Positions 1,136-43,379 of a stretch of 64,000 nt of DNA are shown here, one piece after another. The stretch is from positions 95,170,001-95,234,000 of the forward strand of contig NC_083282.1 in NCBI RefSeq assembly GCF_963506605.1. The letters run 5' to 3'. Each line of letters opens with the position of its first letter. The first letter of the stretch is position 1. A program made the position numbers and the translations under genes. The stretch is from Zootoca vivipara (taxonomy: Eukaryota). Under the pieces are notes generated by a model. That model was not told where the DNA came from and did no database searches. It saw only the letters and a program-made list of their open reading frames with translations.

Positions 1136-1515
1136 GGTGAAGGTCTCACTCTGGGGTCCCAAAGCAAGGAGAGGGATCCACTGCCTTGCAAGAACATTTC
1201 CCTCCACTGAAGCTGTTGCATGCCTGAAAATAAAGCACATATTACAAAGAGAGTGGGTTTTATATTCATCTGCTGCTAAAAATATTTGCCAAAAGATTGT
1301 GAGTTCTCGCCAAAAGCAGCCATCGCTCCGCCTTGCTTCTCCAGCAGTGGCCAACAGAAGCGGGCAGGACACCTACGAGATGCTGCCCCTTGAGATGGCA
1401 CCACCAGAGGCACCCTCCCCCTCCTCAGTCTGCCTCCTGGGCAGGCCAGCCCTGGTGAAGGGGCAGCTTCCTACAGGAGAAAGAGGGTGGTGCTGTTTTG
1501 TTTTTGTTTTTAACA

Positions 1516-4500: not shown

Positions 4501-4609
4501 ACACGAAAGCTCATACCAAAATATAAACATAGTTGGTCTTTAAGGTGCTACTGAAGGAATTTTTTTATTTTGCTTCGACTCAGACCAACACGACTACCTA
4601 CCTGTAACT
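1516..4609 (+). mobile_element. Penelope-like retroelement (Neptune-type), RT + GIY-YIG endonuclease, frameshifted/inactive
   Basis: N-terminal FLTKCKNLDIVPKGL (~1690-1730). RT motifs PGRPIIS, LATMDVESLYTNIP, GTAMGTRMAPQYAN and YIDN (YIDD mutated, 3224-3235) lie in ORF 1712-3298; thumb region in ORF 3354-4073. Cys-rich linker CNKPRCQLCCH and NIVYAIKC..ALYIGQT GIY-YIG lie in ORF 3857-4303. Frameshifts near 1742, 3240 and 3800. Inverted duplicate at the 5' end. Confidence 0.93.
4479..4516 (+). ncRNA. Minimal type I hammerhead ribozyme in the Penelope 3' UTR
   Basis: GTAT-CTGAAGA-A-GTGTGCATGCACAC-GAAA-GC-TC-ATAC: stem I GTAT/ATAC, core CUGANGA, stem II hairpin, GAAA, palindromic minimal stem III (AGCT), NUH = CUC. 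Predicted cleavage after C4512. Confidence 0.85.
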
Positions 4610-20438: not shown

Positions 20439-21416
20439 GGCCTCATGCTTCCTCCTCGAGCCGCCTGGCAGTGATGTGCTTGCGATGCCCACTGTGCTTC
20501 CTGAGGGCAGGCGAGAGAAGCCGCCGGGCCCAGCCTGGTCACCCGTGGGCAGTGATGCAGCACAGGATCCTTCCCAGGGGCTCACCTGCTTCCCGTTTCT
20601 GTACTTTAATCTTCTTCTTGCTCTTAGGAATAGTTTGGAAATAAACACGTCCGCCTGACCCCACTGTGTCTCTCTTGAAAGGCAGGGAGGGTGCAAGGGA
20701 AAGGGCTGTTCCGGAACCAAATGTGCAGCAGGCTGGTGGATCCACAGGTCCATGGGGTGGAGCTCCGGGAGGGGAAAAGCAGCCGAAGCTGCTCCCTTCT
20801 CCTCTCTCCCGCTGAGCACGAGCTTTGCAAATTCCCTTGTGGGTGGACACAGGAAGGAAGCAGGCAGGGGGAATCTGATGAGTAATAATAATACTTATTA
20901 CTATTTATTATTTCATAAAATTTTATACAGCGCTTGCTTGTAAAAACCTCAAAGCAGTTTGCAAAAATTATAAGGCAATAAAATTAACAATAATTTAAGG
21001 CTTTCCAAAAAGTTAATATAGCACTAGACTGAAAACAGATTAAGACTGGCAATTAACTAAGCACCTGGACACATCTGGACAGGCATGTCTAAAGAAAAAT
21101 GTTTTTAGCAGGTGCTGAATACAGTGAAGACTCCTGCCTGGTGTCAATAGGCAGGGAGTTCCAAAGTGAAGTGGCTGCCACCCTGAAAAGACTTGAGTCC
21201 TTACAAATGCAGAAAAGGGGTCTTAATGTGCACCTGTAACACAGCCACTTCCGCCAATCAAGGGGGGGGGGACGGGCGATGACACACCCTATTCTCAAGG
21301 CTTACTGTGTAAAGCAGAAGTTACAGGTAGGTAGCCGTGTTGGTCTGAGTAGTCGAAACAAAAAAATTTTAAAAATTCCTTCCAGTAGCACCTTAGAGAC
21401 CAGCTAAGTTTGTCAT

Positions 21417-21774
21417 CCCAGGGACCCAGGTGGCGCTATGGTTAAACCACTGAGCCTAGGGCTTGCTGATCAGAAGGTCGGCGGTTCGAATCCCTGTGAC
21501 GGGGTGAGCTCCCGTTGCTCGGTCCCAGCTCCTGCCAACCTAGCAGTTCAAAAGCACCTCAAAGTGCAAGTAGATAAATAGGTATCGCTCTGGCGGGAAG
21601 GTAAACAGCGTTTCCATGCGCTGCTCTGGTTCACCAGAAGCAGCTTAGTCATGCTGGCCACATGACCTGGAAGCTATACGCCGGCTCCCTTGGCCAATAA
21701 TGCGAGATGAGCGTGCAACCCCAGAGTCGGTCATGACTGGACCTAATGGTCAGGGGTCCCTTTACCTTTACCTT
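21417..21774 (+). mobile_element. Sauria SINE (Squam1)
   Basis: GGGACCCAGGTGGCGCT head, B box GGTTCGAATCC, (TTTACC)n tail, TSD TAAGTTTGTCAT (21405-21416, 21775-21786). Confidence 0.9.
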
Positions 21775-21788
21775 TAAGTTTGTCATAT

Positions 21789-21826
21789 GTATGAGCTTTC
21801 GTGTGCATGCACACTTCTTCAGATAC
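21789..21826 (-). ncRNA. Minimal type I hammerhead ribozyme (second intact copy)
   Basis: Exact reverse complement of 4479-4516. Confidence 0.85.
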
Positions 21827-22539
21827 ACTGAAACAGAAGTCCCCAGACCCTTATGTATAGTCAGAAGGTGGGGTTGGGGAACCTGTGTCCTGCTGGGCTA
21901 AACTCCCATCAGCCCTAAGCATTGGCCCTGCTGGCTGTGGGTGATGGGACCTGGAGTCGAAGGACACCCGGAAGAAAGAAAAAGAAGCCATGAAAACGGA
22001 CGGCGGGAAGGAGAAGCTGTGCTTGAAGGCGTGGAAAGCAGAGTTTGGGTTTCAGGGAACACAGAAGCAGGAAAGAGGAAAGTTATTGGTGGAGAGAGGA
22101 GGAGCCAAAGAAAAGAAAAGGGAGGAGAGTAGAAAGGTGAGTGGAACTGGCTGGAGAGAAGAAGAGAAGGCAGGGAGTTAGGGGGGGGGATACTGGAGCA
22201 GCCAAGTTGCCTTGGGAGGAATGTGACAGGCCTGTCCATTCTGCCCCCCCCCCCCATCATCTCACCGGAGCACCTCATCCTTTTCCTCTAAATCTAAACC
22301 AAAAAGTCCCAAATGCTGCAATGTTTCCTCATCAAGGAGTTGCTCCATCCCCTTGATCGTTTCGCTTGCCCTTTCCCAGCTCTCTCAAATCCTTTCGGGA
22401 GGTGAAGCAACGAGAATTGCGCACAAGGTTTTAAAAAATAAACCAGTACAGTGCACCCCTGCGAGGTAGGCCAGTGCAAGTCTTGAATAAGGGCGGATCG
22501 CACGCCATGCATTTAAAACACATCACTTCCACGCGCACA

Positions 22540-22882
22540 CATCCGAACTACAGTTCCCGAGAGCCTTTGGGGGAAGGGCACGGAGTCCTGGGCGGGCGAG
22601 GCTCTTTCCATTTATGTTCGCGGCCCCTTTAAGAAATCCTCCCCCGGCTTCCTTTCTTTCTGAGTCGGCCAATGGGCGGCCTCCCCCGCCGAGCCCCTCG
22701 GCCAATCCCGCCGCGCCCGCCGCCCGTTTCCAGGACGCCCCCCACGGCGCGCGCGCTCTCATTGGGCGAATCGAACGCGAGCGCGGCGCTGATTGGCCGC
22801 GCCGGCGGAGCTTTGCAACATTCAAACTTCGGCCGCTGACGAGCGAGAGGGCGCAGCGCAGGCGACGACCGCTCAACCCGAC
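22540..22882 (+). promoter_or_regulatory. UBE2C G2/M-type promoter
   Basis: ACTACAGTTCCC (ZNF143-type, 22547-22558); CCAAT at 22669 and 22702; ATTGG at 22761 and 22792; reverse CHR TTCAAA at 22821-22826; CpG island. Confidence 0.8.
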
Positions 22883-25800
22883 ATGGCCTCGCAAAACACC
22901 GACCCCGGCGCCGCCGCCGCAGCCGCAGCCTCCAGGAAGGCGGCCGAGCCCGGCGGCGCCGCCGCCCGAGGCTCCGTCCGGAGCAGGTAGGGGGCGGCCG
23001 ACTCCTGAGCGCGTGCAGAGTGCCTCGACGGCCCTTCCTGTAAGGGGGGGAGGAGGTTGGCCATCGGGCTCCTGAGCGCGTGCAGAGTACCCCCGTGCTT
23101 CTTCCTGTTTGCGGGGGTAAAGGGGCTCCTGAGCGCGTGCAGAGTGCCTCGGCGGCACTTCCTGTCGGTGGGGGAAGGGAGTAGGCCGTCGGGCTCCCGG
23201 GCGCGTGCAGAGTATCTCCGTGCTTCTTCCTGTTTGCGGGGGTAAGGGGGCTCCTGAGCGTGTGCAGGACCCCGCCCTGTTGCTGCCGGCCTAACCCTGT
23301 TTTCCCCGTCTCCGCTTCACAGGCTGCAGCAGGAGCTGATGACTTTGATGGTGAGTCGCCCTTTCAGCAGCCCTTTAACTGCTGCTCTGCTTCTGGCTGG
23401 AGAGCCCAGGCGGGGGGGGGAGGGGGAGCTTCCTGCCTTCTGACCAGCCCAGGATGGATGCCCTTTAAGGGTCCCGACACCTGTGGAGTAAAGGGGGGAT
23501 GGGGTGCCTTGGCTTTGCCGGAGAAGGCCAAAGATCCACATTGAATGTCTTGAGCACCCCAGAACAGAACCAGCCCCCCTGGGTGCTGCTTGGCTGGGGC
23601 ATCACCTTCCATCTATTTCTTTGCTTGCTTCATTAAATTTATACCCCCACTTGATTGTAGCTCAAAACCTCAGCGCAGTATAGGAAAAAGTCAAAAGAAC
23701 AACAGATCCCACAAAAAATACAGCAATAAGTTAAAACACAAAAGGTTACAAGAACAATGCGCTGTGGAAAAACACATCCACTTGTCTAAACAAGAACTAT
23801 GTCGTTATTATTTGTTGAAATTGTTAGTCATTTTATCTTGCCCAAGGGCAAACCAAACAAAATACGAAGTCCACATGGATACAGTAAAACAAGGTAGGGG
23901 GATTAAATATATATATATCCCACCCAGGCACCATAAAGCATGCAGTGAAGTCACTTGCCTCATGTCAAGAGGCAGGGAGTTCCAAAGTGCAGATGCTGTC
24001 CTGAAAAATCAAGTTCTTACAAATGCAAAATGGGCATCATGGGGCACCTGTGACAGGGCCCGATTCGCAGTCTGAAGCGGATGAGTGGGCAGATAGGAGG
24101 CAAGGCAAGCTGCTAGGTAAACTGGCCCCTGTTGCTGAGGGTTTTGTGGGCGGTAATAATAATAATACTTAATTTTATTATTTATACCCTGCCCTGCTCC
24201 CAACAGAACACTAAAAAACAGAATAAAACTTCAAACATTAAAAACTTCCCTAAGCAGTAGTAATGGAGGGGCAGCTTGTGAAGCTGGGCACCCTGTTGCC
24301 CCAGGGGAGAAATGTGGGCCGGCCGGCCAGGGCACCCTCCTCACCCTGCACCCTCCTCAGTGAGGCAACCTTCCCTGCTGCTTCCAGCCAACTGCAAAGC
24401 GTCCCCCAGCAACCCCTTTCTGCAGCCACTCTAGCCTGTTTCTCCACACAGATGTCTGGGGATAAAGGGATCTCGGCCTTCCCAGAATCAGACAACCTCT
24501 TCAAGTGGATCGGGACCATTAATGGAGCCACTGGGACGGTGAGTTGGGTCGGCAGGAGCGCTGGGAACCTCGGAAGCCCTCGCACCGAGCCTTTGGCCTC
24601 GAGGTCAGCCTCATCTACACCAGCGGAGGCAGCAGCAGCAGCTCTCCAGGGTCTCGGGAGGAGGGGGCCTTCCCCCATGCGCAAGTTGCAGCCACCCTGT
24701 GGGTCACCAAATGAGCCAGGCTGCTCTCATCCGTTTGTCCTAGGAACAAAAATGTCCATCTGAGGGTCCCGGGTGCTTGGCAGTGTCTGGAGTGCTGTAC
24801 AGACCTGGGAACATACAATGCAACATGACCTCTGAGCACATGCAGAGTGCATTCTGTTATTTTATTTTTTTTAAATACATTTTTTATTCCAGTTTTCCAA
24901 ATTCAACAAATTAACAAAACCAATCTTTTATACAAAATCTTATATTCACATCTTTTACCTTGCTCCGCCAAGCTATGACTTCCCCCCTCCCTTCATGCGG
25001 GTTTCTTGTTAATTCCCTTTTTTGCAGTTCCTTTTTTGACATATTGGTCAATTCGTAAGGTTTATTTTAATCCTGCGAGAGTTTTTAATGATCTACAGTT
25101 TTTCTCCATATAGTCCACATATTTACTCCAGTCCTTTTGAAACCTTGTCTCCCCCTGGTCACGAATCTTGCATGTCAATCTAGCAAGTTCAGCATAGTCC
25201 ATCATTTTTATCTGCCACTCCACAATTGTAGGTAATTCCTGTAATTTCCATTTTTGGGCTAACAAAGTCCTAGCCGCGGTTGTTGCATACATAAACAGTG
25301 TTTGATCTTCTTTTCTAATCTCACCTCCCATTATTCCTAACAAAAATGCTTCTGGTTTTTTTGGAAAAGTATATCTAAACATCTTTTTCAATTCGTTATA
25401 TAAACTTTCCCAAAATCTTTTAACTTTTTCGCATGTCCACCACATATGATAAAATTCACCATCTTTCTCTTTACATTTCCAGCAACTTTTATCACTCATT
25501 CTATACATTTTAGCTAATTTAACAGAGTGCATTCTGTTATGGCCATGTATTTAGCCCGCATCCTGTGGTTAGAAGGCAGAGGCTAAAGTTTAGGCCCCTG
25601 TCGTCAGAAGCCTTTTGGGTCCTGCCACTCAGGGCAGAGCAGTTTGGAGATTGAATCCAATCTCCCAGAAAATGAGCCATCTAGGAAAATTGCTGCCAGA
25701 TTTCAAGTGCTTAACAGGATCTCCAGAAGGCAAGAGGGAATGGCTGCTGCCTGAGGTCCAAGGGGTCCCGAATCTCCTGCAGCGTTCTGTTCTCACAGTG

Positions 25801-28060
25801 AACAGTTAGAAGCCCACAAACAGTGATGGCAAAAGGCGGAAGCAAGCGGAGTTGGGTATCTTGCCTTGAGGCATGAGGCAAAGAGAGGCAGCATGGTGCA
25901 ATGGTTAGTGTGTCAGGCTTGGGACGGGGATATAGCAGGGCTTGAATCCCCACTCGGCCATGAAGCTCACATTGAGGACTAGTCACCTGCCTCTTAGCCT
26001 AGCCTCCCTCGCAGGGTTGTTGCGGGGATTAAATGAGGAAAGGAAGAACTATGTCCACTCCCTTGAGCTCCTTTGGAAAAGGTGAAATATAAATGCAATT
26101 ATTTATAATGAGGTGGAACGCAGGGGATGCGAAATTCCACTCAAGTATCTGATTTATGCCTCTCTGCTCTTCTCCCAAACTCCGCCGCCCCCTTCCCAAA
26201 AAAGGTGTATGAAGACCTGAGGTACAAGCTGTCCTTGGAGTTCCCCAGTGGGTACCCTTACAATGCGCCCACCGTCAAATTCCTGACCCCCTGCTACCAC
26301 CCCAACGTGGACCTGCAGGGGAACATCTGCCTGGATATCCTCAAGGACAAGTGGTCTGCTCTCTACGACGTCCGAACCATCCTTCTCTCCATCCAGAGTC
26401 TGCTGGGAGGTGAGTCAGAATTTGTGCTCTGGGCCTTGGGCTGGGGGGTGGGGGCTGCTTCTGCCCTCCAACTCCTAGCCTGGCCTGGGGTCCAGCCAGG
26501 CCCCTCCAGCCCCAGTGAAACAACTGGCACTAGCTTGCTGCTCTGCCTGAAGAACTCCGACCCGGTCTTGTCCTGAGAATTCAAGGTGGGCTTGCATGAT
26601 CTTTCTTGCTTGTTCCACCATGAAAGCCGTTCTCCACACCTCATTCATTTTTTCCTTCAATGGCGGCACTGAAGACCCAAAACTGATTTAGCCACAATTC
26701 ATGCATTGCAGGGGGTTGGGCTAGATGACCCTTGGGGATCCCTTCCGGCTTTTCGTTTCTATGAAAACCTGCATCTGTTCGCCCCCACGGCCCCTCCTTT
26801 GTCTCCCACCCAGAATAGAATCATAGAGTTGGAAGAGACCACAAGGGCCATCCAGTCCAACCCCCTGCCAAGCAGGAAACACCATCAAAGCATTCTTGAC
26901 ATATGCCTGTCAAGCCTCTGCTTAAAGACCTCCAAAGAAGGAGACTCCACCACACTCCTTGGTAGCAAATTCCACTGCCGAACAGCTCTTACTGTCAGGA
27001 AGTTCTTCCTAATGTTTAGGTGGAATCTTCTTTCTTGTAGTTTGAATCCATTGCTCCGTGTCCTCTTCTCTGGAGCAGCAGAAAACAACCTTTCACCCTC
27101 CTCTATATTACTATTACTTCCCTTGGTCTAGATGCTATACTCCTATTGATGCAGCCCAGGTGGAATCTTCTTATAATTCCTGGGGCTGTGCTCAGAAGAT
27201 CTTCCTGGCTGCAACTTCTGCCCTGGGAGCTGATGTGTGTTTATGGGCTGGGAAGAGTCCCCTGGCTTGTATTTGTAGCATAGGGGGTGCAGTTAAAGGA
27301 CCCCACACACACACACCCAGTCAGTCTTGGGCCTTTGCCAACCGCAGCCCCTGCCCTGACAGCAAATCTTTCCCCTCAGAGCCAAACGTCGAGAGTCCGC
27401 TGAACACGGAAGCTGCAGAGCTCTGGAAGGACCAGACAGGTGAGAGTCTCGAGATTCAGATTATGCATTCGGGGGGGGGGGGGTCCTCTCTGGATCTCTT
27501 TTTCTCTCCTCCCCACTCTCTGAAGTCACCTCGTTTTGAGCCCCAGAGGATGCTGCGAGGATCCGTGCCTTGGAGCATGTGCAGAGGTTTTACACAGCCC
27601 GCCCAGGGGACAGTCCTCTGGAACGTGGAGGTGGAGACACTTGAGACTGGGGGGCCGGAGGGAGTGTCGGGGGCAGTTTGGAGGCCCAAGGAAGCCCCCC
27701 GCTTGAGTCCTTGGATGTTGCTTCAACAGAAGGGATGGGGGGGGGCTATGGAGGAGGAATCAAAGCCACAGCGCTGGGTCCTTTGTGTGTGTTTCTTCCT
27801 CCAGGGGGGGGTGTGTGTGTCTCTTCCTCCAGCCACCAACTGCTATTGCAGTCCCATTTGACATGGCCTGGGGGAGGGAAGGGGGTGTCTTGTGGTTTTT
27901 TTGGGGGGGGGTGCTGTTGCTCAGGAGGCAGCAGCCATTCAGAAGCCCCAGCCGCCACCGCCTCCTCCTGACCTGCCTTTCCATGTCTCTTCCCCCCACA
28001 GCCTACAAGAAGTACCTTCACGAATCCTATGCAAAGCATATGAAGAACCAGGATACCTGA
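22883..28060 (+). CDS. UBE2C: Ubiquitin-conjugating enzyme E2 C, 6 exons
   Basis: Exons 22883-22986, 23323-23350, 24452-24538, 26205-26409, 27380-27439, 28002-28060. MASQN start, [44 protein letters not shown] with catalytic Cys. AATAAA at 28221-28226. Confidence 0.97.
23002..23268 (+). repeat. GC-rich dimeric minisatellite in UBE2C intron 1
   Basis: Five CTCCTGAGCGCGTGCAGAGT-like cores separated by alternating A/B linkers (units of ~67 and ~57 bp). Confidence 0.85.
24861..25522 (-). mobile_element. 5'-truncated L1-clade LINE
   Basis: ORF 25062-25532 with CWKC..HMWWTC; 18-bp TSD CAGAGTGCATTCTGTTAT (24843-24860, 25523-25540). Confidence 0.92.
26814..27160 (-). mobile_element. Young CR1 3' end
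   Basis: Near-identical to the other CR1 tails; internal deletion near 27105. Confidence 0.88.
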
Positions 28061-28706
28061 AGACCCCCCTTCCCTCCTCCCCCCCCGCCCCATTTCTGTC
28101 TTCCGTCTCTCCACCCTGGTGGTATGTCTGTCTTTGCAGCGCTTTCTCTGTGAATGTCACACTGTATTATAGACTTGTTTTTAAATTTATTTGGCATTTT
28201 GTCCTGTGGATTAATGTATAAATAAACCTGTTTTCGTTTTGGGGTTTTTTTTTCTAAACGGAGGCCTGGTTCCTGCTCTGCTTCTGCTGCTCGCCTGGGC
28301 CCCTATATTGAAACCCAGAGGTGTGGGGGTCAGCTCAGAGCACCTCTCCCTACGGACGCCGCAAGAGGGGGCTGGCCACTGGGCCGCGGGGAGCACACCC
28401 CATTTTGCATGTGGGAGCCCGGACGTGGGTTGCTGGCTTGGGGAGGAAGTTTTGTAGGCAGCCAGGAGAGTGGCCTTGGCCAAGATAAAGCGACTAACAA
28501 ATTTAATAAATAGTAATAATAAAAAATGGGGGCTTGTTAAGGGTTCTTGAGGCCACCTAAGGGAGAGCCCTGCCGGATCTCCTACTCCCCCCCCCCCGAA
28601 CTAGTTACTTTGAGGAGGCAGCCAGCTCTTGCAGTTTTGAATTCCAGGAGCTGGTGATGTGCTGGGAGAAGGCTTAGGAAGGAACCCCCAAGGTCATCCT
28701 CTAGCC

Positions 28707-28842
28707 CAGGCATCCCCAAGCTTGGCCCTCCAGATGTTTTGGGACTACAATTCCCATCATCCCTGACCACTGGTCCTGTTAGCTAGGGATCATGGGAGTT
28801 GTAGTCTCAAGACATCTGGAGGGCCGAGCTTGGGGGTGCCTG
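28707..28842. mobile_element. Palindromic hAT MITE (same family as 12696)
   Basis: 8-bp TSD CTCTAGCC (28699-28706, 28843-28850). Confidence 0.88.
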
Positions 28843-29755
28843 CTCTAGCCCCACCCCCTGTAATGAATCCCTAGCCGATGGCCACAACAACCGCTGTTTA
28901 AAAACCTCCAATGAGGGTCCATCCTGTTGTTGGTCCTGAATGTTGCTTTTCTGAAGCAAACTGGCCTTCTTTTCTCTCTCGCCTTTTTCGAGCCTTCAGC
29001 TGAGACCTCCTCTGCCTGCTTAGAGTCTTCTGCATGGCTATGACATTGTGCTAACAGCCTTTGCTTTGCAGCACTGACCAAAGGAGAACCTTGATTTGTC
29101 TTTGGTACCAACGGACCGTCTCTCTTGCGGAAGTGGAGCTCTGCCCCACGGTGTGCAGCTGCCTGTTCTAAACGCCAGGAAAAGATCTCTCTATGCCCTG
29201 CCCCACCAAAGGACTCCACCCCTCCCATTTCTGGTTGCCTGATTTACAAGCCCCTCCAGGGGGCTTATTTGGGCCAGAGGGGAGAGGGTTCTGTGGCCCC
29301 CTCTGGCCCAGCTCCCCTCATTGCCAGGAGCCAGCCAGGTCAGTTTGAAAGGGACCTCAAGGGCCATCTAGCCCAACCCCTGCAATGTGGGGGGTGGGGG
29401 GATTCGTGGTCCACCCACACCCAGAGGCCCCCACCCTCTGTTCCCATCCACCTCACACCCCTCCCAGAGTCTGGGTCGGGTCCGCACTGCAGACGATGCT
29501 CAGCTCCAGTCCTTTGCTCTTTATTGACGTGTTGAGTGCTATAAATAGAGCATCACAGGCTTGGGGGTCGGTGGGCCCCCCCCAAAGCAGAGCCAAAACG
29601 AGTCTCTGAGCTGTGTTGGAGCAGCAGGCTGGAACAGGACTGGAGGGGTGGGGGCAGCTCAAAAGGCGAGGCTTGGCGGCTGGAGCAGAGGCAAGAGGGG
29701 GCCGGCTTGGCGGCTGGCAGCGGCCCTCAACTTTGCAGGAATGTATTGAGTCGCT

Positions 29756-32700
29756 TTACTGCACACCCTCCATCATCTTCAGGAACTCTGTAGGGGGGAG
29801 ACAGAAAACAGGTCAGTCCTGAAGCAGGAGGGGGCCAAGGAGCCCTGACTCCACACACCACAGGCCTAAGCAGCAGGATCTTGAGGGGGCAGCAACCTTG
29901 CCCAGATTGGGGCTGGCTGTGGCTCTAAACCCCTGCCCCCAGATGAAGGATTCTGGCCAGGTCATCAAGAGCCCGGAATCGACAGCTGCCAAAATCCGGG
30001 AAGGAAGAGGGAAGCCTATTTCCATGGAAGCTGAGAACTGATTTACTTGTTTGTATATAAAATTCATATACCGCTTGAGCGGGGAGGCTGTGTGCCTTGA
30101 GGGCCCTGCCCAGTGGGACAGGGAGCCTGTGGGGCTGGTGGAAGGGTCACAGAACTGCCTCTCCAGCTCCAAAGAAAGGCTTGGCTCATCCACTCACCGT
30201 CAAAGTCGATCCGGCCATCGTTGTTTTTGTCGCCGTCCTTCATGAGCTCCTCAATCTCTTCGTCAGTGACAGACTCTCCAGATATCCGGAAGATCTCAAC
30301 CAGCTCCTCTGCATCCAGGAAGCCATCGCCATTCCTGTTTTTGGGTAGGGGGAGGAGAAGTGTTGAGGGGGCAGCACTAAGCTCCTGATTTAAACCCATC
30401 ACTGCAGTCTGATCAGAACCAGGTCTGGGCACCCCAGTTTAAAGGAGGCTATTGGGAGGCTGAAACGGGTGCAGGTGACCTGCTGGGTAATAGAATCCTA
30501 GAGTTGGAAGAGACCACAAGGGCCATCCAGTCCAACCCCCTGCTGAGCAGGAAACACCATCAAAGCATTCTTGACATATGCCTGTCAAGCCTCTGCTTAA
30601 AGACCTCCAAAGAAGGAGACTCCACCACACTCCTTGGTAGCAAATTCCACTGCCGAACAGCTCTTACTGTCAGGAAGTTCTTCCTAATGTTCAGGTGGAA
30701 TCTTCTTTCTTGTAGTTTGAATCCATTGCTCCGTGTCCGCTTCTCTGGAGCAGCAGAAAACAACCTTTCTCCCTCCTCCTCTTATATATTTGAACATGGC
30801 TATCATATCACCCCTTAACCTTCTCTTCTCCAGGCTAAACATACCCAGCTCCCTAAGCCATTCCTCGTAAGGCATCGTTTCCAGGCCTTTGACCATTTTG
30901 GTTGCCCTCTTCTGGACATGTTCCAGCTTGTCAGTATCCTTCTTGAACTGTGGTGCCCAGAACTGGACACAGTACTCCAGGTGAGGTCTGACCAGAGCAG
31001 AATACAGTGGTACTATTGCTTCCCTTGATCTAGATGCTATACTCCTATTGATGCAGCCCAGAATTGCATTGGCTTTTTTAGCTGCTGCATCACACTGCTG
31101 ACTCATGTCAAGTTTGTGGTCTACCAGGACTCCTAGATCCTTTTCACATGTACTGCTCTCAAGCCAGGTGTCTCCCATCCTGTATTTGTGCCTTTAATTT
31201 TTTTTTTTTGCCCAAGTGTAGTACTTTACATTTCTCCTTGTTTAAGGAGTCCCTTCCAATTCTGGGAACAGCTGTGGGGACGTGGTTTCTGTGAGCAGGC
31301 ATTGTCTTCTAAGGGGGTACAGCTTCTCTGCTCTCCAATGCTTAAAGTTGGGAAGACCAGAGAAGGATCATAGAGTTGGAAGAGACCACAAGGGCCATCC
31401 AGTCCAACCCCCTGCCAAGCAGGAAACGCCATCAAAGGATTCTTGACATATGCCTGTCAAGCCTCTGCTTAAAGACCTCCAAAGAAGGAGACTCCACCAC
31501 ACTCCTTGGCAGCAAATCCCACTGTCTGACAGCTCTTACTGTCGGGAAGTTCTTCCTAATGTTTAGGTGGAAGCTTCTTTCTTGTAGTTTGAATCCATTG
31601 CTCCGTGTCTTTGAAAGGCAATAAAGAGTCCCTAGCAGAGCACCTCCTGCTGATCTTGGTGTGGGAAGAGGTGTTCCTTCAGCCTTAACGCCCTGAAACG
31701 GGCCCAGAAGACAAGAGGCAATGGGTGCAATTGTTCTCAGAGTTGATATTCTCCGGCAGAGGGCATTGCAAGAGCAAGCCCTGAAGTCAGCAGGGCAAAG
31801 ATCAATGGGGCAGAGGCCACGTGCCATAGGCGATTCAAGATGCACCCCCAAAGTACATGCCCACTCCTTTGAGGGCAGTGCCACCCCGTCTAGAACAAGA
31901 TGCCCCACCAGCGCCCAGATCGGAGAGCCGATCACCCACAGAGCCTCCGTCTTGTCTAGATTCAGCTGGTTTGTTGGCTCCACAACCAGCATGTGGGGTG
32001 GAACCGGGCAGGTGCCCCCTGCCCCACTTCTCAATGGAATCCCAGTGTGTGTGTTTTCATGGGTTGGCCTGTGGCAGACTGGTGGTGAGGGAAGACTCCC
32101 CGCTGGTGTGTCAGGATGAGTCTGCATGTGGCCTTCTGATTCCACACAAGCACTCCAGGGTTGGTGACCCCCTTCTCTTCCAAGCCTGGCACCAGCTGGG
32201 CAGGGTCCAAGCGGAGAAGGGAGATGGTGTCTGGGCAGCCAGGTACACCTGAAGCCGCCTGAAGTTCACGGTTGCTGAAGTGCTAAGGAGGCCCCCACTT
32301 AGCTCAGCCAACTCCTCTGCCTTTGCAGGGCCAGGAGGTGCCCCGATCCTTTGTGCCTGGCATTTGCCTACCTCAGGCTCCTCCTTCCTCAAAAGCTGCC
32401 CATGTTTGCCAGGAGGTGAAAAAGGAGACTGGACAGAATTAGCCTCCAGGTAACAGAAGAAGAGGCAGCTTCTGCGACAACTGCAAATCACTCTCTTTTT
32501 CGGCTTTGGGTAGGAATGCCAGTGGAGTGGGGGGAGGATTTGAACCCTGGTCTCCCGGGTCCTCATCTGACACTCTACACACCACACATTTGTTTTGACA
32601 GTAAGTGCCGTTTGACAGTGGAGCAGACTCCTTTGCTGGAGGGTTTCGCGCAGAGGTCGGGTGGTCACCTGCCCATGGATGCCTTAGCTGTGATTCCTGC

Positions 32701-35700
32701 GCTGCTGGAGGTTGGACTAGAGGACCTTTGGGGGACCCTTGCAGTTCTATAGTTCTGTGGCTCGATACCAGTCCAGCTGCCATAAGGAGCTTTGAATGGG
32801 GGTCCCGTCGAGACTCTTGGCAGAGCATAAGTATCTCTGTGTGTGATCTGAACATTGCCCCCAGCTGTTCAGCCTTAAAACAAACCCTCCTCCAGGCAGG
32901 AGGGGCTTCTGCTGACCCCCCCTCCCCTTGTCAGCCTCACCTGTCAAAGATGCGGAAGCACTCAGCCAGCTCCTCCTCGCTTTTTCCCTTGGCATCCTCT
33001 TTCATCTGGCGCACCATCATGACCAAGAACTCCTCGAAGTCGATGGTTCCGCTGCCTGCAGGGAGGGTCCCCGGGACAAGGGTGAGGGTTGCCCCCTCCA
33101 GCCCCCTCCCAGCCTCCCTTCATCCCAGCCCGCCCCCCACCCAAGATGCAGGCCCTCCTCACCATCCTCATCCACCTCCTCTATGATGGCGTCCAGCTCC
33201 TCTTTGGTGGGCGTCTGGCCCAGCATCCTCATGACGGTGCCCAACTCCTTGGTGCTGATGTCGCCGCCCCCATCCGCGTCAAACATGTCAAAGGCGGCTT
33301 TGAACTCTGCAGGAGAGAGAGAGTAGGGGGGGGGGCTAGGGGATGAGCCTGGCAGGAACCAGAGCCAAGTCAACTCAGAGGTTTCCCAGATCCCGCAAGC
33401 CCTGAGTGGCAGGAGGCTGGGATGGATGACCGCTAGGGTCCCTTCTGACTACAATTCTAGCTGGTTTCATTCTTTCTAAAGGGCCAAAGGAGGGGAGGGG
33501 GGAATGGGCTTGCCAACGGGCTAAAAAGAATAATAGAAAAACCATCTGCCCACAACACAGGCCCCTCTCCTTTTTCACCTGAAGCTGTCATTCTATGGAA
33601 AACCTCATGGAGCTTCTGCAGGTGGTAGCAGCTCCTTGGTGTGGGAGGACCCCAAAACAACCCCCCCCCAAATGCATGCATGCACACAATCCCTGCTGTG
33701 CTCAGGCAGATTGGAATGGAGAAGGCCTTCCTGGGGCAACCCCTCCCCAAGTGATAATGCTTCAAACCTCACACAACTCACACGCAGAGGTAGTAGGGAG
33801 TCCTTGGCCAGGGGAGGTCTAGGGGGGGGGGACAAACTGCTAAACACGGTCAGAACTGCAGGCGGCAGAAGTAATCGCCCCTCTGCCCTGGACCTCCCCG
33901 ATTCCAGGCGTTCCCCTTCTGTGTGTGCAGCTGGAGATTCAGGAGCCACCAGAGTGAGAGGAAGATGGTTGCTTGGGTGCAATAGAGGGGTCAATTTTGG
34001 AGGGGCTGGGCAATATTTTGGGTGCTAGAAGAGGGGGTGCCTCCCCCACCCACCCACCCACCCACTCACCCACCCACCTGGCTTTGTACAAGCTCCAGTC
34101 ATGGAATCTGTTAAGCCTCTAAGCCACCCAAGCCACTTGTGGAATGGCTGGGCAGGGCATGGATATTCTTACTATTCTTGCAAAGAGCTCTAGAGGGTAT
34201 AAATGGCTTCGCCTCCCACTTTTATCTCCACAACAACCCCGTGAGGTAGTCGAAACAAAATAAAGTGTGCATGCACACGAAAGCTCATACCAATGACAAA
34301 CTTAGTTGGTCTCTAAGGTGCTACCAGAAGGGAATTTTTTTTTTATTTTGTTTCGACTACGGCAGACCAACACGGCTACCTACCTGTAACTAAACCTGTG
34401 AGGTAGGTTAAGCTGAGAGGCAGTGACTGGCTCCCAAGACCACACCCAGGGAGCTTCAAGACTGTCCTCATCCAACACCCTAACCACTATACCACACTGC
34501 CTCTCAGGGTGCCAGCAAATAAAATATTAGCTTATGACGTTTTGTGGTTACCCCGCCTTCCTCCCTAGTTGGCCCACATCCAAAATGGCCACTTTGCCCC
34601 TCGGCCGAGTCAGGGTGCCTGCTGTGCCCAACCGGGTGCCCCCCGAGGATGCCCCTCAACTCACCCGCGATCATTTCCTCAGTGAGGAAGGACCGGGCTT
34701 CCGCCTGCTGGTCCGTCTGCAAGGCAAGGGGAGGAAGTCACCAAGGGAGCAGAGTCAGGCCCAGCCGGGGCCATGCCCAGGGATGCCCTCCCCACCCCCG
34801 GCTACCTGCATTCCCCTCTGCCATTGCCACTGCTGCTGCTGCTTCTGCCACCTCCTCCTCAGGTGGTTGCTTCTCTCCCGAGACTTTCTTTCCCCAGCCC
34901 ACGAAAAGCCCCTTCTCTTGGCATCACCAGAAAGGGGACTGCTAGCCACTGGAGCTCCAACCCCGCCTTGGCCTCGGCTTGCTCCGCCTGGCATTCTGCA
35001 GGTGGTGCAGCAGAAGGGGATTCACAGAACCCAGCCCCCTGCGACCGGGGTTGCGAGTGCCAGGGTCTTGGGGCAGTGGGCAGGAGGAGCGCTGGGATTC
35101 CTGTTGTGGCTCCTGCATTGCGGCAGGGTTCGACTGGACGACCCCGGGGGTCCCTTCCGATTCCGCAAGAGCATCCCTTGCTCTCGAGAGGCTGGGCGGC
35201 ACATCTCCACCAAGGCTGGCAGAATCCGTCCCTGAGCAGCCCCTGCGTGGGTCCCAGCTTGCAGGTTCCTAAGGTCCATCTTGCAGAGGCAGCCAGCTTT
35301 GGCCCAGAGTTGCGCAGCAGCCCCAGGCTTCTTTGGACTTCGCCAGGATTCCTGGGACCTGAGAGAGAGGGACCTCACGGGGCCCACAGTGGCTGGCCAG
35401 AGGAGAGGATGGCGGTCCTTGACGGAGGGATGCTATTCTTAGCAGCGCCTGCCGGGTGCCTCCTTCTAGGGTGCTCAGCAGGCCGCCAGCCAGCTGCTCC
35501 AGCACCTGTTGGCTGGCAGATTGGGTTACTCCTTCGAGCCGGGTCTTGTAGCTCAGCGGCCGACAGGCAGGCAGGCAGGCAGGGTTCCTGGGGCGGCTTG
35601 GCTTTCTCCACGGCCATCCGGCTCCATCCTTCATGTCCTTGGCCAGGCTTTGCGAAGGGTGCAATGACCCCCTGGGCAGCCCCCCACCCGCCCAGATCCA

Positions 35701-36146
35701 AGGAGATTCCCCATTTGCCCCCATCTCTCTTCCAGCAAAAACCGCCCTACTCCCCCAACACCCCGAGCCACGGTTGACCTCTCCGCCCTCTCTTTCCATG
35801 AGAAGACCCCATCCCCGCCCTCTGCCTTTTGCCTTGCCCCCGCCCAGCCCCACCAGTCTCCCCTGCAGCCTCAGCCCAAGGGCCACTCCTGCCCTTCGGC
35901 CCCACACAGGGCAGCTCCTCCGGGAGCCGTGCTTGTGTCCTGGCCACGTCTCCTGCCGCGATCTGTGCTGGTCATGAGCCCCGGCGCCGGCCTGTCCCAT
36001 CGGACGCGCGAACAACCAGTCCATCTCACCACCTGCGCACGATCCGCGGCCCGGTCCGGCATCCCGGGAGGAGATGAGTCTCCCACCGTCCTGGGCGCCG
36101 CCGTCAAAAATGGGCACACGTGCCCATGTCTTACCATGCTTACCAT
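29756..36146 (-). CDS. TNNC2: Troponin C, fast skeletal muscle, 6 exons
   Basis: Exons 36135-36146 (or 36144-36146), 34665-34716, 33163-33306, 32941-33055, 30198-30334, 29756-29787. [40 protein letters not shown]...[13 protein letters not shown] with four EF-hands. Minus-strand AATAAA at 29520-29525. Confidence 0.97.
30490..31608 (-). mobile_element. Two tandem young CR1 3' fragments (30490-31242, 31367-31608)
   Basis: ORF 30684-31178 ([21 protein letters not shown]) and CR1 tails. Confidence 0.9.
34246..34391 (+). mobile_element. Short Penelope-tail copy with truncated hammerhead and 5' inversion
   Basis: Matches 4489-4609; preceded by 34246-34264, an inverted copy of 34342-34360. Confidence 0.85.
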
Positions 36147-36259
36147 GTTGGCAGGAAAGACCCCACAGCAACCCACAGAGAGAAAGAGACCCGGTGGCGC
36201 GTCCGCTCCGCTCCACTCCCCGGCGGACGACGGCAGAAAGCTTCTCTGCGGCTCCTGGC

Positions 36260-36620
36260 AGGGCCTTTTGTACTCTGCCCGCTGGGCGGGGCCTTGCCCA
36301 GGCCTTCGTGGTTGGACGCTGCCGGGAGGCGGTTCTCCAGACAGCCAATCGCCTCCCTCCCTGCCTGCTCATTGGCCGGGGGGGCATTTTAGCCAAATTT
36401 AGCCAAGCCACTCCTGGCTACGTCCATCCTCAGCAGCAGGGGAGGCTGAAGGAGGAGGAGGAGGCAGGGAGGGTCTGGGTGCCCTGGGGGGAGAAACCCA
36501 ACACCTCCCCGAGAGAAGGATAAGGAGCTGGAGGCAGGCTGCCCACAGACTGTACATGCCCGTCCGCTGAGCACACCTGCCCCAGGCCAGCAGGGGGTTA
36601 AAAATAGCAGGGACAAAGCA
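36260..36620 (-). promoter_or_regulatory. TNNC2 muscle promoter
   Basis: TACAAAA TATA-like box (36266-36272, minus strand), GC box, CCAAT boxes, E-box CACCTG, MEF2 site GTTAAAAATAGC at ~36597-36608. Confidence 0.6.
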
Positions 36621-38768
36621 GTGGGTGTCCTCCTCCTGCCCCCCCCCTCTCCAGACACAAACATCCCATATATTGAGGCTGGAGGAAGGGTTGGGAAGTC
36701 TTGAAACCCAGCCTGGCCCATCTGAGTGGAGGAATGACATGTTCTGGGAGTGGGGCTCCCCCCCCCCCAGGCCTGCCCAGAGCACCCTTGTTCTTTTGCT
36801 AAGCTGCTGGGCACCCAAGCAGTGGAGGCGCCCCTGCTGTCGCTTGCTTATAAAGGGATCCCGTTTCCTCCACGTCTCTGAGGGAAGTCGTGTGTGAAAT
36901 AGGCCAAGCCAAAGGCTGGAGAGCAAGGAATCTATCTGCTGGACCCTTTCGCTCTCCTTCCCAAACTCCTCAGCCTCAGTCCATGGAAAGTCACTGGCCA
37001 CACACATCGGAATATCAGAAGAGCCAGAGCCCCCCCCCCCCAGTCCGGCATCCTGTCCCCACAATGTTAAAGATGGCTATGATGGGAAACCAGCAAGCAG
37101 GATCCAAGCCTAAGAGCCCTCTCCCCTCCTGTGGCTTCCAGCAATAGGGATCCTCTTTTAAAGCCATCCAGCCTGGTGGTCACCACTGCATCCTGCAGCA
37201 AGGAGTTCCACAGTTTAATTTCCGTGCTGCACGAAGAAGCCCTTCCTTTCATCTGTCCACCATTCAGCTCCATGGGAGAGAGGGAGAAAAGCTTTCCTCT
37301 GCCCCATTTCTCCAGACTGTGCATCATGTTATAGACTTCTCATGGTCCTCTCCTGACGGAAGGGAGCAGCTGGCTGCCCTCCCCCCCCCCCGTCCGCTTC
37401 CCCTATTAATAGACATTCCTAAGGAAAGCTGCTGAGGAGGCCAGCAGAGCAGCTTCCTAAATAAGGCAGAGAAGTGGCAGGGGGGTCTAGTCTCTCCCCC
37501 CCCCAATACACCTTGAATCCACACCAGATTGAAGGCACAAGAAAGGGACCTGGCAGAGTTGCAAGGTACTGACACAAGAAGGGGATTCACTTGTTGGCTT
37601 GGAAAGGTGTTTGATCCCCCACCCCTTTCAGGACTGGCAAGTGCAGGCCTTGTATTCTGGAAATGCCACCTCCCCTGCCCCTGGTTCCTGCCATGTGCCC
37701 CAGAGCAGCCCCCCACATTGCAGTGGGCTCAAGTGTCAAAGCAGTGGCAGCTACCCCATGTGGCTCCTCGCAAAAGTTTGCTGAAGTAAATTCACAGGAG
37801 GAAAGTTTCCCGTCCTCTCCTCCACCTTGAAGGCACCTGGGACGACCGAAAGCTTCTTCGGAGGGGCATAGAACTGTAGAGTTGGAAGGGGCTCCAAGGA
37901 TCATCCAGCCCAACCCTCTGCAATGCAGGTGTCACTGCTAAAGAATCCCCTGATGGATGGCCATCCAACCTCTGCTTAAAAACCTCAAGTGAAGGTTTGG
38001 TTCCTGAATCACGGGGTTGGACTAGATGACCCTTGGGTCCCTTCCAGCTCTACAGTTCTATAATTCAACCCAGGAGAGCCCACCACCTTCTGAGGGAGTC
38101 CGTTCCACTATCAAATAGCTCTTGGGTCCTCCCGGACACAGTGGTATTGGGCGCTGGGAGGAGGCTAACTCTTCTTCCTTGAACTTCCTTAGCTTAACCT
38201 ATATTAGGATGCAGGCCAAACGTGTTTCTGAGTGCAGCCTGCCTGCAGCTATGGCAGAGTTAGAGAGGAAGAGAGGTCAATCCATAGGGTTGTCAGCAGT
38301 ATGCAGATGACGCTCAGCTCGACTTCTTCAACTAAGCGGTGCTTGGCTGATTAGCAATCCATGCCCTTTAAAATATGTTTGTGGGAAGGGGGGGTATTGG
38401 TTTGTTTTCGTCTTATTATGTATTTTGTGTTCTCATTTTTTTTAAAAAAAAAATTCTGTTGTGATCTGCCCTGGGAACTTTGGATAAAGGGCGGAATGGG
38501 CATAGCCAGGATATTTTTTTTGGAGGGGGGAGAGGACTTTTGTTGCTGGGGGGCAGAACCGCCGTGACCAGTCAGTTAGTTCAGTATTTCTATTGTTTTA
38601 CTTGATGGGGAGGAAGCTGCCCCGCTTGGCTATGCCCATGAAGGGCGGTATGCAAATCTAATCAATAATAATCAATAATTGTAACCCAAAGAGTGCTCTC
38701 CAATGGCTCATCCTCCTCCTGGAAAAGAAATTACCTGTGGGGCGGTGCAGTTGTTCTTGTTTTAAAGG

Positions 38769-39061
38769 CAGGGGTCAGCAAACTTTTTCAGCAGGGGGCC
38801 GGTCCACTGTCCCTCAGACCTTGTGGGGGGCCGGACTATTTTTTTTGGGGGGGGGAATGAATGAATTAATTCCTATGACCTACACATTCTACTCATGTAA
38901 AAACACCAGGCAGGCCCCATAAATAACCCAGAGATGCATTTTAAATAAAAGGACACATTCTACTCATGTAAAAACATGCTGATTCCTGGACCGTCCGCGG
39001 GCCGGATTGAGAAGGCGATTGGGCTACATCCGGCCCCCCGGGCCTTAGTTTAGGGACCCTG
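38769..39061. mobile_element. hAT (Charlie-like) MITE
   Basis: CAGGGGTC...GACCCTG termini; TTTTAAAGG duplicated on both sides. Confidence 0.8.
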
Positions 39062-39504
39062 TTTTAAAGGGATACTCCACAGGAGGAAAGGAATCTTCCA
39101 CAGGGAGTTGATCCCCCGCTCTCTTACTGTGCATTGCTCACGCCCCACCTTATTGCACACGCCCCAAGCTGTTCCTCACCCCTTCTTTTCCACAGGAAGG
39201 AAGAAATCTTCCTATTGCCTGGAATTTGGGCCACACCCCCTGACCTCCTTGGCAGGCTGCAGGTATGTTTTGAACAAGCCAGGCTGGCCCAGTGACAAAC
39301 GCCAAAGGAAATTAGGCAGTCAGGCAAGTTTGATGAAGAAGGTGGGTCCTTGGCCTCGCAGAAGGGCTCTTCTCTTGTGCATGAGGGAAATCAGATCAGA
39401 ATGTGCAGGGAACATTATGTTTCCATAACCGGAACTTGCACATAGCTCAGAGTTCTTCCCATACGCAGGCGAGATGCTCTTGTCAAAGTGCAGCCATGCA
39501 TATA

Positions 39505-39668
39505 CCGTATTTTTCCGTGTATAAGACACTATTTTTTCCTAAATTTTGGAAGTTTAAAATAAGGGGTCATTTTATACACGGATAGGGCAGTGCACTTTCT
39601 TAAGTTTGAGTCCCAAAAAATAGGGGGCGTCTTATATACGGGGGCAAGTTATACACAGAAAAATACGG
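39505..39668. mobile_element. Tc1/mariner-pogo MITE
   Basis: TIR CCGTATTTTTC.GTGTATAA with TA TSD. Confidence 0.85.
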
Positions 39669-40854
39669 TAATACTTATTTCATTTCTTTGCTACTTTTCC
39701 ATGCGCAAAAAAGTAATGCTCAAAGAGGCATGCAGCAAAGAAAACTGAAATGCATTTCAACACCAAACGGTGCAAAAAGAATTTCCTAATGACATATCAA
39801 AACAACTCAATAGCAAATATAATAACATGGGGGGGAACAACATTTCAGAACTATAAATATAACAAGATTTCATAAACAACGTTCAGCATCCAGTAACAAA
39901 AGTAACAAGGGAGCTTGACAGTTCCCCCTTGGCCTGGAGACATCCCCTCCCAACATGTTACTCAGAGTCCCTCTCCTGCAGCTTTTGCAAGGCTTCTAAG
40001 GGCAGCGGGGGAGGGGAGCTGGAAACACCCCTCCTTCCTTCCTTCCTGGGAGGTTTTTAAGCAGAGGTTGGATGGCCATCCATCATGGATGCTTCAGCTG
40101 AGATTCCTGCATTGCAGGGGGTTGGACTAGAGGACCCTTAGGGGTCCCTTCCAACTCTACGATTCTATATTGTCTCTCCAATATGAGGAGTTTTGCAGTT
40201 ATGTAAGAATGTTAGAAGCTCCTGGCTGCATCCTCGTTCTCACGGTGGAATTGAGCACAAGATCCCTCTCCTTTCCTGCAGTTTCCAGCTCACCAACTGG
40301 GGAGGCAAAACAGAGCCATCCTGGCCAGGAGCCCTCAAGAGCCCTCCCCCCCCCCACCAATGAATTTGCCTAATCCTCTTTTAAAGCCATCCAAGTTGGT
40401 GGCCATGACCACTTGCTTGTGGAAGCAAATTCCACAGTTTAGCTCTGTGCTGCGTGAAGAAGTCCCATTTCTTTTCTCTGTCCTGAATCTCTGGACATTC
40501 ACTGGGTGCCCCTCAGTTCCAGTGTGAGGAGAGAGGGAGGAAAACTTCCCTCTATCCACAGCAGGAATTTGAAACTTCTATCATGTGGCCTCTTGCTCAC
40601 CCTTTCCCTAAACAAAATACAGTAGTCCCAAACGGCAACCTTTCTGCAAAGAGGAGCCCCTCTATCCCCTTATTCAGCACAGAAAGATTGAGGGGGGGGG
40701 AGGACTTTATGGGAAATGGAGACACCCTTTTCCACAGGGCCAACTCCAGGTTTGAGGAGCCCTTGGCAAGATGGCCTTCGTGGGGCTGCTTCTACTGTAA
40801 GTCTGCGCCCCCTCCACCTGCTTCAGATGGAGGCTCATCTGCAGGCAGACGCTT

Positions 40855-41752
40855 CTTGAAGGGCATCCTGAGCAAGTTTGCAGACGACACCAAATTGGGA
40901 GCGGTGGCTAATACCCCAGAGGACAGGATCACACTTCCAAATGACCTTAACAGATTAGACAACTGGGCCAAAGCAAACAAGATGAATTTTAACAAGGAGA
41001 AATGTAAGGTACTACACTTGGGCAAAAAAAAAAAATGAAAGGCACAAATACAGGATGGGTGACACCTGGCTTGAGAGCAGTACGTGTGAAAAGGATCTAG
41101 GAGTCTTGGTAGACCACAAACTTGACATGAGTCAACACTGTGATGCAGCAGCTAAAATAGTCAATGCATTCTGGGCTGCATCAATAGGAGTATAGCATCT
41201 AGATCTAGGGAAGTAATAGTACCACTGTATTCTGCTCTGGTCAGACCTCACCTAGAATACTGTGTCCAGTTCTGGGCACCACAGTTCAATAAGGATACTG
41301 ACAAACTGGAACGTGTCCAGAGGAGGGCAACCAAAATGGTCAAAGGCCTGGAAACGATGCCTTATGAGGAACTGCTTAGGGAGGTGGGGATATTTAGCCT
41401 GGAGAAGAGAAGGTTAAGGGGTGATATGATAGCCATGTTCAAATATATGAAAGGATGACATATGGAGGAGGGAGAAAGGTTGTTTTCTGCTGCTCCAGAG
41501 AAGCAGACATGGAGCAATGGATTCAAACTTCAAGAAAGAAGATTCCACTTAAACATTAGGAAGAACTTCCTGACAGTAAGAGCTGTTCGACAGTGGAATT
41601 TGCTGCCAAGGAGTGTGGTGGAGTCTCCTTCTTTGGAGGTCTTTAAGCAGAGGCTTGACAGGCATATGTCAAGAATGCTTTGATGGTGTTTCCTGCTTGG
41701 CAGGGGGTTGGACTGGATGGCCCTTGTGGTCTCTTCCAACTCTATGATTCTA
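40855..41752 (+). mobile_element. CR1 3' ~900 bp
   Basis: SKFADDTKLG RT motif through to the CR1 tail. Confidence 0.92.
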
Positions 41753-42318
41753 TGGCACCCGAGAACCTTTTAACGTGCACTGGTTTTCATGAGTCCCTTG
41801 AACCCCTATTGCCCCAAATATTCTCTCAAGGAGTTTCTACCCTTTCCACAAGCAGCCAAAAAGGAGGCAGAAGTTAAGGTGGGAAGGAGGAACCACCTGA
41901 GCGACACCTGACAAGACAAGGTGGAGGCAGGAGGAGGCCACTCAGGGACACGGTTGTTTAACCAACAGCGAACCACAACATTCACAAAGGAAGTTGTACG
42001 AGGCGAGTCAGATCATTGTCATTTACGAGTGTAAGAGCCTGCTGGATCAGGCCAAAGTCCCTTCTAGCCAGCCCTCTGTTCTCACAGCAGCCAACTCTGC
42101 GTCTATGGGAAGCCGAAAGCAGGACCTGAACTGTTATTCAAGGTGCACACGGCAACTGGAAGGGAAGGGAGAAAAGAGCTCCCCTTGCTAGTAGCCACTA
42201 GGCAGCCTGATCCTCCTCTGTGAATTTGTCCAGTTCTCTTTTAAGCCATCAAGTTGGCCATCAATGCCTCCTATGGAAGGGAGTTTCATGGGTTAACTAG
42301 GAGCTGTGTGAACAATTA

Positions 42319-42474
42319 CAGTGGAACCTCGGTTTACGAATTTTCGGTTTACGAACGCCGCGGACCCATCTAGAACGGATTAATCCACTTTCCATTACTT
42401 TCAATGGGAAAGTTCGCTTCAGTTTATGAACAGTCTTCTGGAACCAATTGTGTTCATAAACCGAGGTACCACTG
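42319..42474. mobile_element. Tigger/pogo-like MITE
   Basis: TIR CAGTGG.ACCTCGGTTTA.GAA with TA TSD. Confidence 0.85.
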
Positions 42475-42822
42475 TACTTTCTTTTCTCTGTCCTGAATCT
42501 TCCAAAGGTCAGCTTCATTGGGTGGCCACAAGTTCAAATGTTGGGAGGAGAAAAACTATTTCTCCAAGCACAATATTATTTATAGAGGTTGGCTGGGGTA
42601 CACAGGAGAAAGGGAGGTACCCCGTTGAAGTCTGGTGAGGCAACGTGGTGTAGTGGTTAGAGCGTCAGACCAGGGTTTGAGCCTCCACCTGACCATGAAG
42701 CTTTTTTAAATTTGATGAAACATTGTATTTAATTATTTTGCTGGAAACCCAGCCAGATGGGTGGGGTATATAAATGATAAATAATTATTATTCCTCCCTT
42801 TCAGCCTAACTTACTTCACAGG

Positions 42823-42973
42823 TACAGGTAGGTAGCCGTGTTGGTCTGAGTCGAAGCAAAATAAAAAAATTCCTTCAGTAGCACCTTAAAGACCAACTAA
42901 GTTTTTATTTTGGTATGACCTTTCGTGTGCATGCACACTTATTGGTATCTGAAGAATTTTTATTTATTTTTGC
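42823..42973 (-). mobile_element. Short Penelope-tail copy with hammerhead split by inversion
   Basis: Reverse complement of 4489-4606, followed by GTATCTGAAGAA in the opposite orientation; 11-bp TSD TACTTCACAGG (42812-42822, 42974-42984). Confidence 0.85.
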
Positions 42974-43379
42974 TACTTCACAGGGTTATTGTGAGGATTC
43001 AAGGAGGAGGGGGAGACCCTCCTGGATCTCCTTGGAGAAAAAGATGGCATATAAATGCAATAAGATGCATAAATTTAGAGAAAAACAATCCAAGATTTAG
43101 GGCACTTCGAAAAAACCATTTATTGCTGCGTAGGTTTTTGTGGACGACAGCTTCCTGCCCTGCCCTCCATCCAGGGCGCCTCCAGCCATAAGGAAGCTTC
43201 TGCTTCTATTTTTCAGGCGTCACAAGAGAGTGAGTAATCTTGGGGAGAAAAGGCAGGTAAGTTACGGAAGGTGTGCAAATGCATCTCGAGCCCTGTTCAT
43301 GACCCCCGGGGGTTCCTTCGAATCAGGAGCGCCAGCTTGGCCCCGGGGCCGTGGGTGCCAGGCTGCTCAGGCAGCGTGC

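Follow-up and report, generated by a model that had tools for sequence, protein, structure and literature searches.

Short Penelope-like copies in the Zootoca vivipara genome are most likely run-off by-products recording the transcript start of their parent element

Several described systems resemble the repeats treated here, which are short copies of the tail of a Penelope-like element (PLE) found in a 64,000-nt stretch of the Zootoca vivipara genome (assembly GCF_963506605.1, contig NC_083282.1, positions 95,170,001 to 95,234,000 of the forward strand; the whole stretch is hereafter called the window). PAc, a Poseidon element of Anolis carolinensis (Frangieh et al. 2024, PMC11167929), has a hammerhead ribozyme in its pseudo-long terminal repeat (pLTR) and two reverse transcriptase (RT) starts one tail length apart, an arrangement that the Zootoca element appears to share. 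The first start of PAc lies 111-118 nt after the beginning of stem II, and the 3' end shared by the Zootoca copies lies ~118 nt after that point. Unlike PAc, the Zootoca element has a Neptune-type linker resembling a Zn-finger, and its open reading frame (ORF) starts after the tail, whereas that of PAc starts at stem II. The main text on PAc describes neither start-site mapping nor cap-marked run-off copies. The single minimal hammerheads surveyed by Cervera and De la Pena (2014, PMC4209133) are similar to ours in their long helix II, short helix I and missing helix III, in an extra base before stem II, and in occurring as thousands of single motifs with some inverted pairs 100-700 bp apart. 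That study takes the singles for probably truncated PLEs and offers no breakpoint analysis, whereas in Zootoca the breaks gather at a single base and show an extra G. Non-LTR retrozymes (PMC7229834; bioRxiv 10.64898/2026.07.22.740005) are likewise pLTR-derived, contain hammerheads and occur in reptiles, and the preprint also counts 'monomer' derivatives; they are, however, defined by circular RNA and by tandem units that each contain a complete ribozyme, whereas the Zootoca copies are dispersed, mostly head-to-head and often without the core. Pen2a of Adineta vaga (PMC3846280) shares a putative TATA box and initiator (Inr) in the pLTR, target duplications, an inverted pLTR shorter by ~37 bp, and palindromes where the inverted copy joins. 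For Pen2a, self-priming from an antisense RNA is preferred in that study, whereas the extra G at sense position +1 (the first G of stem I) speaks for a capped template of sense orientation here.

We consider it probable that the short copies arose by insertion of a Neptune-type PLE, the RT of which starts inside the leader RNA and runs off the capped 5' end ~130 nt later. They are most likely by-products of a known kind of element that record its transcript start. Direct support comes from the shared 3' end, the pile-up of ends at +1, the extra G, a TATA-like box at about -31, the pairing of direct and inverted arms, and target duplications of 10-18 bp. Run-off at the transcript start of the parent fits better than either option offered in an initial annotation of the window, which had proposed a retrozyme- or SINE-like family (SINE, short interspersed nuclear element) or, alternatively, extreme 5' truncation of full elements.

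The 28-mer at the 3' end has 10,911 exact matches in 1.44 Gb and its reversed control has none; the family is therefore more than chance, and the high copy number claimed for the short form is borne out. Breakpoints were read in the first 100 exact 3' anchors listed, which lie within 7 Mb of one contig (C1) and were chosen blind to 5' length; 5'-end modes were measured from a fixed landmark. Direct arms were shorter than 95 nt in 10 copies, 95-147 nt in 55, 148-200 nt in three and longer in 32. A smooth spread of 5' ends, which the initial annotation had named in advance as evidence against its proposal, was thus not what we found, and its alternative of extreme truncation fails as plain random truncation, given the 55 ends at 95-147 nt of the anchor. 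The single-base mode is at +1, where six of 88 direct arms and six of 49 inverted arms end, and eight more of these 49 inverted arms end at -1 or -2. An inverted arm was present in 57 copies; the outer ends of 46 of them lie 29-51 nt before the end of the 3' anchor (mostly 33-50), and 12 of the 57 terminate at 130-132. The target duplications were recognised at 61 sampled copies.

The boundary at +1 was also evident genome-wide, in counts of exact matches that include both arms and are all lower bounds: at least 27,248 for +19..+38, 19,535 for +1..+20, 9,852 when the latter was extended to -6, and 7,412 with the upstream TATA-like motif. Inspection by eye showed that the -6 pattern misses ~10 of 100 true long copies; allowing for these, ~44% of arms terminate no more than six bases from +1. 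The base before +1 is non-template in 5,572 of the 19,535 arms and is a G in 3,702 of these (66%), against 1,743 non-template bases before +3 in the matched control, where G accounted for 19 of the first 100 listed (hand count). An extra G in full-length L1 inserts reflects capping (PMC11702581). Long sampled copies carry TACATAAG or TATATATAG ~31 nt before +1, the spacing being constant despite divergent subfamily spacers. From the pile-up, the extra G and this TATA-like box, we infer that +1 is likely the start of a capped RNA polymerase II (Pol II) transcript. The sequence upstream of +1 was heterogeneous in 30 inspected loci, being flank, inverted arm or ORF start, and four of the 30 still show element sequence there and so hold no true break. 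One further pattern count (5,443) was set aside, as the pattern missed the largest subfamily (seven of 34 long copies match).

A cap-derived G also marks full-length L1 insertions, in which the cDNA likewise ends at the 5' end of the RNA, as it does in retroviral strong-stop DNA. The product proposed here would differ from both: internal priming would limit it to only ~130 nt, and target priming would insert it. We envisage that a Pol II transcript begins at G+1 and serves uncut as the template. The enzyme would nick both target strands, and priming would occur at two RNA sites, one near the ORF start and the other ~38 nt upstream. Each cDNA would extend to the cap. Priming at these sites would thus yield arms of 130 nt and 92 nt, respectively, with the cap as their common end, and this is the short structure observed most often. 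The cDNAs may then be joined to each other or to the target via microhomology, often within the palindromic stem II; because joining would take place inside this self-complementary stem, one arm would usually be trimmed, by up to 25 nt. The short products are predicted to be dead ends, as they would have neither the promoter (the putative TATA-like box lies outside the copies that begin at +1) nor the ORF-side sequence that the anole enzyme needs. In vitro, the PAc enzyme extends both target strands, uses two internal RNA starts one tail length apart, does not depend on RNA cleavage, yields a shorter product from 5'-shortened RNA, and needs ORF-side RNA beyond the insert end (PMC11167929). At least 3 nt of ORF-start sequence lie beyond the tail in 21 of 62 short and nine of 31 long non-tandem copies in our sample, and their templates therefore had the ORF start behind the tail.

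Several observations weigh against run-off from a capped start. The breakpoint sample is a single 7-Mb stretch biased to young copies, and an arm ending at or just before +1 was found by a rough test in only 23 of the 55 short copies; the other 32 therefore need the trimming step, itself conjectural. The junction reads AG/G in 11 of 18 extra-G cases, and template switching onto AG motifs therefore supplies part of the G excess. The box of the commonest subfamily is TACATAAG, which is no canonical TATA box, and the Penelope promoter of D. virilis is internal and TATA-less (PMC2377424). As PAc belongs to the Poseidon clade, the RNA requirement is borrowed by analogy. In three RNA-seq runs from one study (~6% of each read; libraries of this kind resolve neither caps nor small circles), no pile-up of molecule starts was listed at +1, 60-92% of the reads continue into unrelated sequence, as would be expected of copies lying within host transcripts, and depth beyond the ORF start was mostly 0-4 and at most ~9. 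High depth in these runs was confined to +1..+130.

The templates might instead be short transcripts of truncated copies that keep the TATA-like box (as copy 1 of the window does), which would make such copies quasi non-autonomous source loci. Some 7,400 arms retain both the box and +1, and RNAs from them would produce an identical 5' end together with the additional G. Nevertheless, (i) short copies often reach the ORF-start sequence, as counted above, which is absent from most truncated copies, (ii) PAc requires ORF-side RNA past the end of the insert, and (iii) no short-only haplotype was found among the four commonest, each of which contains short and long copies. The haplotype comparison covered 88 of the 100 copies (three array entries and the other copies shorter than 95 nt were dropped) and ~70 informative bases. 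In a nearest-neighbour test of the short and long labels the value was 0.577 and the null 0.526 (p=0.086), a result that at ~70 bases is weak either way. The 'short-element-specific subfamily' sought by the initial annotation thus did not appear among these haplotypes, and we regard short-transcript templates as unlikely. Somewhat less likely still is stalling of the RT at the folded hammerhead on a long RNA, by which the short copies would be structure-biased 5' truncations. Frequent 5' truncation is standard for PLEs (PMC8557442), and many direct arms of the sample end within stem II, but the commonest single end base lies on the far (5') side of the fold and not on the side from which the enzyme enters, and the excess of G at this base over that at +3 is also at variance with stalling.

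As to a short ribozyme-bearing retroelement system, the initial annotation was right about the high copy number and the uneven spread of 5' ends, and the narrow size class also speaks for such a system; self-propagation as a retrozyme or SINE via self-cleaved circular RNA appears, however, very improbable, and the short copies do not act like such a family. Not only are haplotypes mixed, but the junctions differ in all 34 short-plus-short inverted copies; arm divergence is 2.5% within one copy against 4.5% between copies (43 copies). Short-only subfamilies with a shared 5' structure, as expected of a SINE, were not found at this low haplotype resolution. The unit ends are not those that self-cleavage would set, since they lie at +1, ~34 nt upstream of the predicted cut, and among 65 copies of at most 147 nt, just 15 hold a whole hammerhead in the direct arm. 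Tandems of two or more units with a whole hammerhead each, which define retrozymes, were absent from the three window copies and represented by one array among the 100 sampled anchors. The search for tandem arrays suggested in the initial annotation yielded, besides this array, only 20 head-to-tail junctions of short units genome-wide, at 19 loci, in dimers or trimers at most and with varied joints. Several of these 20 junctions (L168-L187), in which the 3' end is joined to the ribozyme start, carry an extra G, which suggests jumps from the cap to another leader. No circle joint was present among the RNA-seq rows listed, and standard RNA-seq loses small circles.

The one array (L078:6193-8621; C1:2777319-2779747), like the few short dimers or trimers, speaks for a retrozyme; it comprises four near-identical 598-bp units with a whole hammerhead each and an added 34-nt tail. 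The unit consists of the ORF start joined to the endonuclease end, the 3' untranslated region (UTR), the hammerhead and the tail. The array fits the tandem definition of a retrozyme in the preprint (bioRxiv 10.64898/2026.07.22.740005) and has a short target duplication, but its junction occurs at this single locus and nowhere else in the genome, with a depth of 0-1 in the three RNA-seq runs, whose animals may not carry the insertion. It was detected from anchor spacing, Tandem Repeats Finder having missed it (period limit 500), and is a candidate for a newborn retrozyme made by rolling-circle copying or local amplification. Least probable of all is a 3' splice site at the boundary, because, although the D. 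virilis Penelope intron ends at the 5' end of helix I (PMC4209133) and several subfamilies read TTTCAG/TGTATC, CAC replaces CAG in the largest subfamily, which nonetheless shows the pile-up (15 of 35 at 95-147), the mode falls one base downstream of the supposed acceptor, and the 30 inspected loci share no upstream exon. An origin of the inverted arms from short RNA polymerase III transcripts was ruled out, as long inverted arms begin at the same U-run.

The parent shows the make-up of an endonuclease-bearing PLE, with one ORF encoding an RT (RVT_1, E=2e-8) and, at the C-terminal end, a GIY-YIG domain (E=1e-5), and PLE architecture, namely a pLTR, partial tandems, a 5' inverted copy and a 30-40 bp tail. 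In the window its reading frame is broken by frameshifts, and the 5' pLTR and first codons are missing; an intact start is present in another locus (L097). The linker between RT and endonuclease reads CNKPRCQLC in both, a Zn-finger-like motif that marks Neptune and is shared with Nematis (PMC8557442); judged by this motif, the parent is a Neptune-type PLE. Its pLTR matches the minimal type I hammerhead pattern of PMC4209133, on which our ribozyme calls rest, with variation at a free core position (CTGAAGA/CTGACGA/CTGATGA), while an Rfam scan of the window gave no hammerhead match at E<=1. The 3' flank of the long copy (4609-4735) matches 40860-40991 (minus strand), so that this copy was inserted beside or into another repeat. 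Over the endonuclease end (L097:5150-5350), RNA-seq depth was 100-430 on both strands in one run (X23) and below 30 in the other two (X21, X22).

All three short copies reported in the initial annotation exist (Table 1), match the tail of the element at 85-95% by self-BLAST and share its 3' end, and the two named sequence variants are present. Their description as hammerhead-bearing, however, holds for copy 1 alone: a motif scan found the full sense core in the window only at 4483 (+) and 21822 (-). Copy 1 (184 nt) is an ordinary 5'-truncated copy, not one that starts at the ribozyme, because its TATA-like box is retained. It is interrupted by a SINE with a 12-bp duplication on both sides (21405-21416 and 21775-21786), the body of which we take to be Sauria-type. 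Copies 2 and 3 start at the stem II palindrome and have short inverted 5' pieces and target duplications of 11-12 bp.

Table 1. Positions of the parent element, the three short copies and associated features in the window
Feature	Position	Strand	Basis or remark
Inverted 5' piece of the long copy, a copy of 1815-1931	1494..1605	-	self-BLAST, 87% over 117 nt
Element body: frameshifted ORF (RT, C-x4-C-x2-C linker, GIY-YIG), 3' UTR, pLTR tail	1610..4609	+	
TATA-like box, putative promoter, ~31 nt upstream of the common 5' end	4445..4454	+	
Minimal type I hammerhead; short copies most often have their 5' end at G4479 (+1); cut predicted after 4512	4479..4516	+	
U-rich stretch, 33-50 nt before the 3' end, at which inverted arms begin; putative second RT start	4560..4576	+	
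Shared 3' end, putative first RT start; continues into the ORF start codon in tandem copies (e.g. L024)	4581..4609	+	
Copy 1, 3' part	21319..21416	-	self-BLAST
SINE insertion, later than copy 1, ending in ACCTTT repeats	21417..21774	+	tail type per PMC13295347
Copy 1, 5' part: whole hammerhead 21789-21826, TATA-like box 21850-21857	21775..21878	-	
Copy 2, left target-site duplication, within an older repeat	34238..34249	+	right copy 34395-34406
Copy 2, short inverted arm, from the putative second start region	34246..34263	-	
Copy 2, direct arm, begins at stem II, without CTGAAGA core	34263..34394	+	
Copy 3, direct arm, begins at stem II; GAAAGG in place of GAAAGC	42823..42943	-	
Copy 3, inverted arm, internally shortened, ending at +1 with extra G at 42944	42944..42973	+	
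Copy 3, target-site duplication	42974..42984	-	other copy 42812-42822

Copies 2 (34238-34406) and 3 (42812-42984) were inserted at the identical base of the same older repeat; a single duplicated event was ruled out by their different variants and different 5' structures. Fourteen exact junctions of this target-site kind were found genome-wide (L061-L074), with differing 5' structures, against 3,794 occurrences of the 18-mer target. A 12-mer located just downstream, taken as a control, had four matches, all likewise insertions at or next to the same site. The target is thus a small but real preferred site, which perhaps arises through microhomology at both ends; a target-site logo was not relied on, being confounded by microhomology with the element's own ends. 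The window also contains palindromic repeats of ~140 bp (12695-12832, 19096-19243 and 28701-28848), probably a miniature inverted-repeat element family, with weak mir-5408 matches below the gathering score in the Rfam scan.

Earlier publications already cover the element type, the minimal hammerhead, single motifs that stem from truncated copies, inverted pLTRs, the tail, and a pLTR with a putative TATA/Inr (PMC4209133; PMC3846280; PMC8557442). We found no publication describing cap-marked run-off copies of PLEs, in a literature search that reached few subscription journals. For the long copies, an ORF start behind the tail of the template implies either that this template was tandem or circular or that the RT jumped from the cap to the 3' pLTR. 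It is tempting, if distinctly speculative, to suppose that PLEs use a retrovirus-like strong-stop: all copies would start in the leader, reach the cap and then transfer to the 3' pLTR, landing on a 34-nt terminal repeat (from +1 as far as the cut) that ribozyme cleavage would leave there, short copies would be failed jumps, and the hammerhead would define the acceptor end.

If run-off at the transcript start is genuine, thousands of natural products in the genome map this start to one base, the template is a capped, uncut, sense RNA, and the internal priming seen in vitro with the anole element gains support in vivo. The 'monomeric retrozymes' and SINE-like hammerhead repeats annotated in reptiles may then be by-products of an autonomous element.

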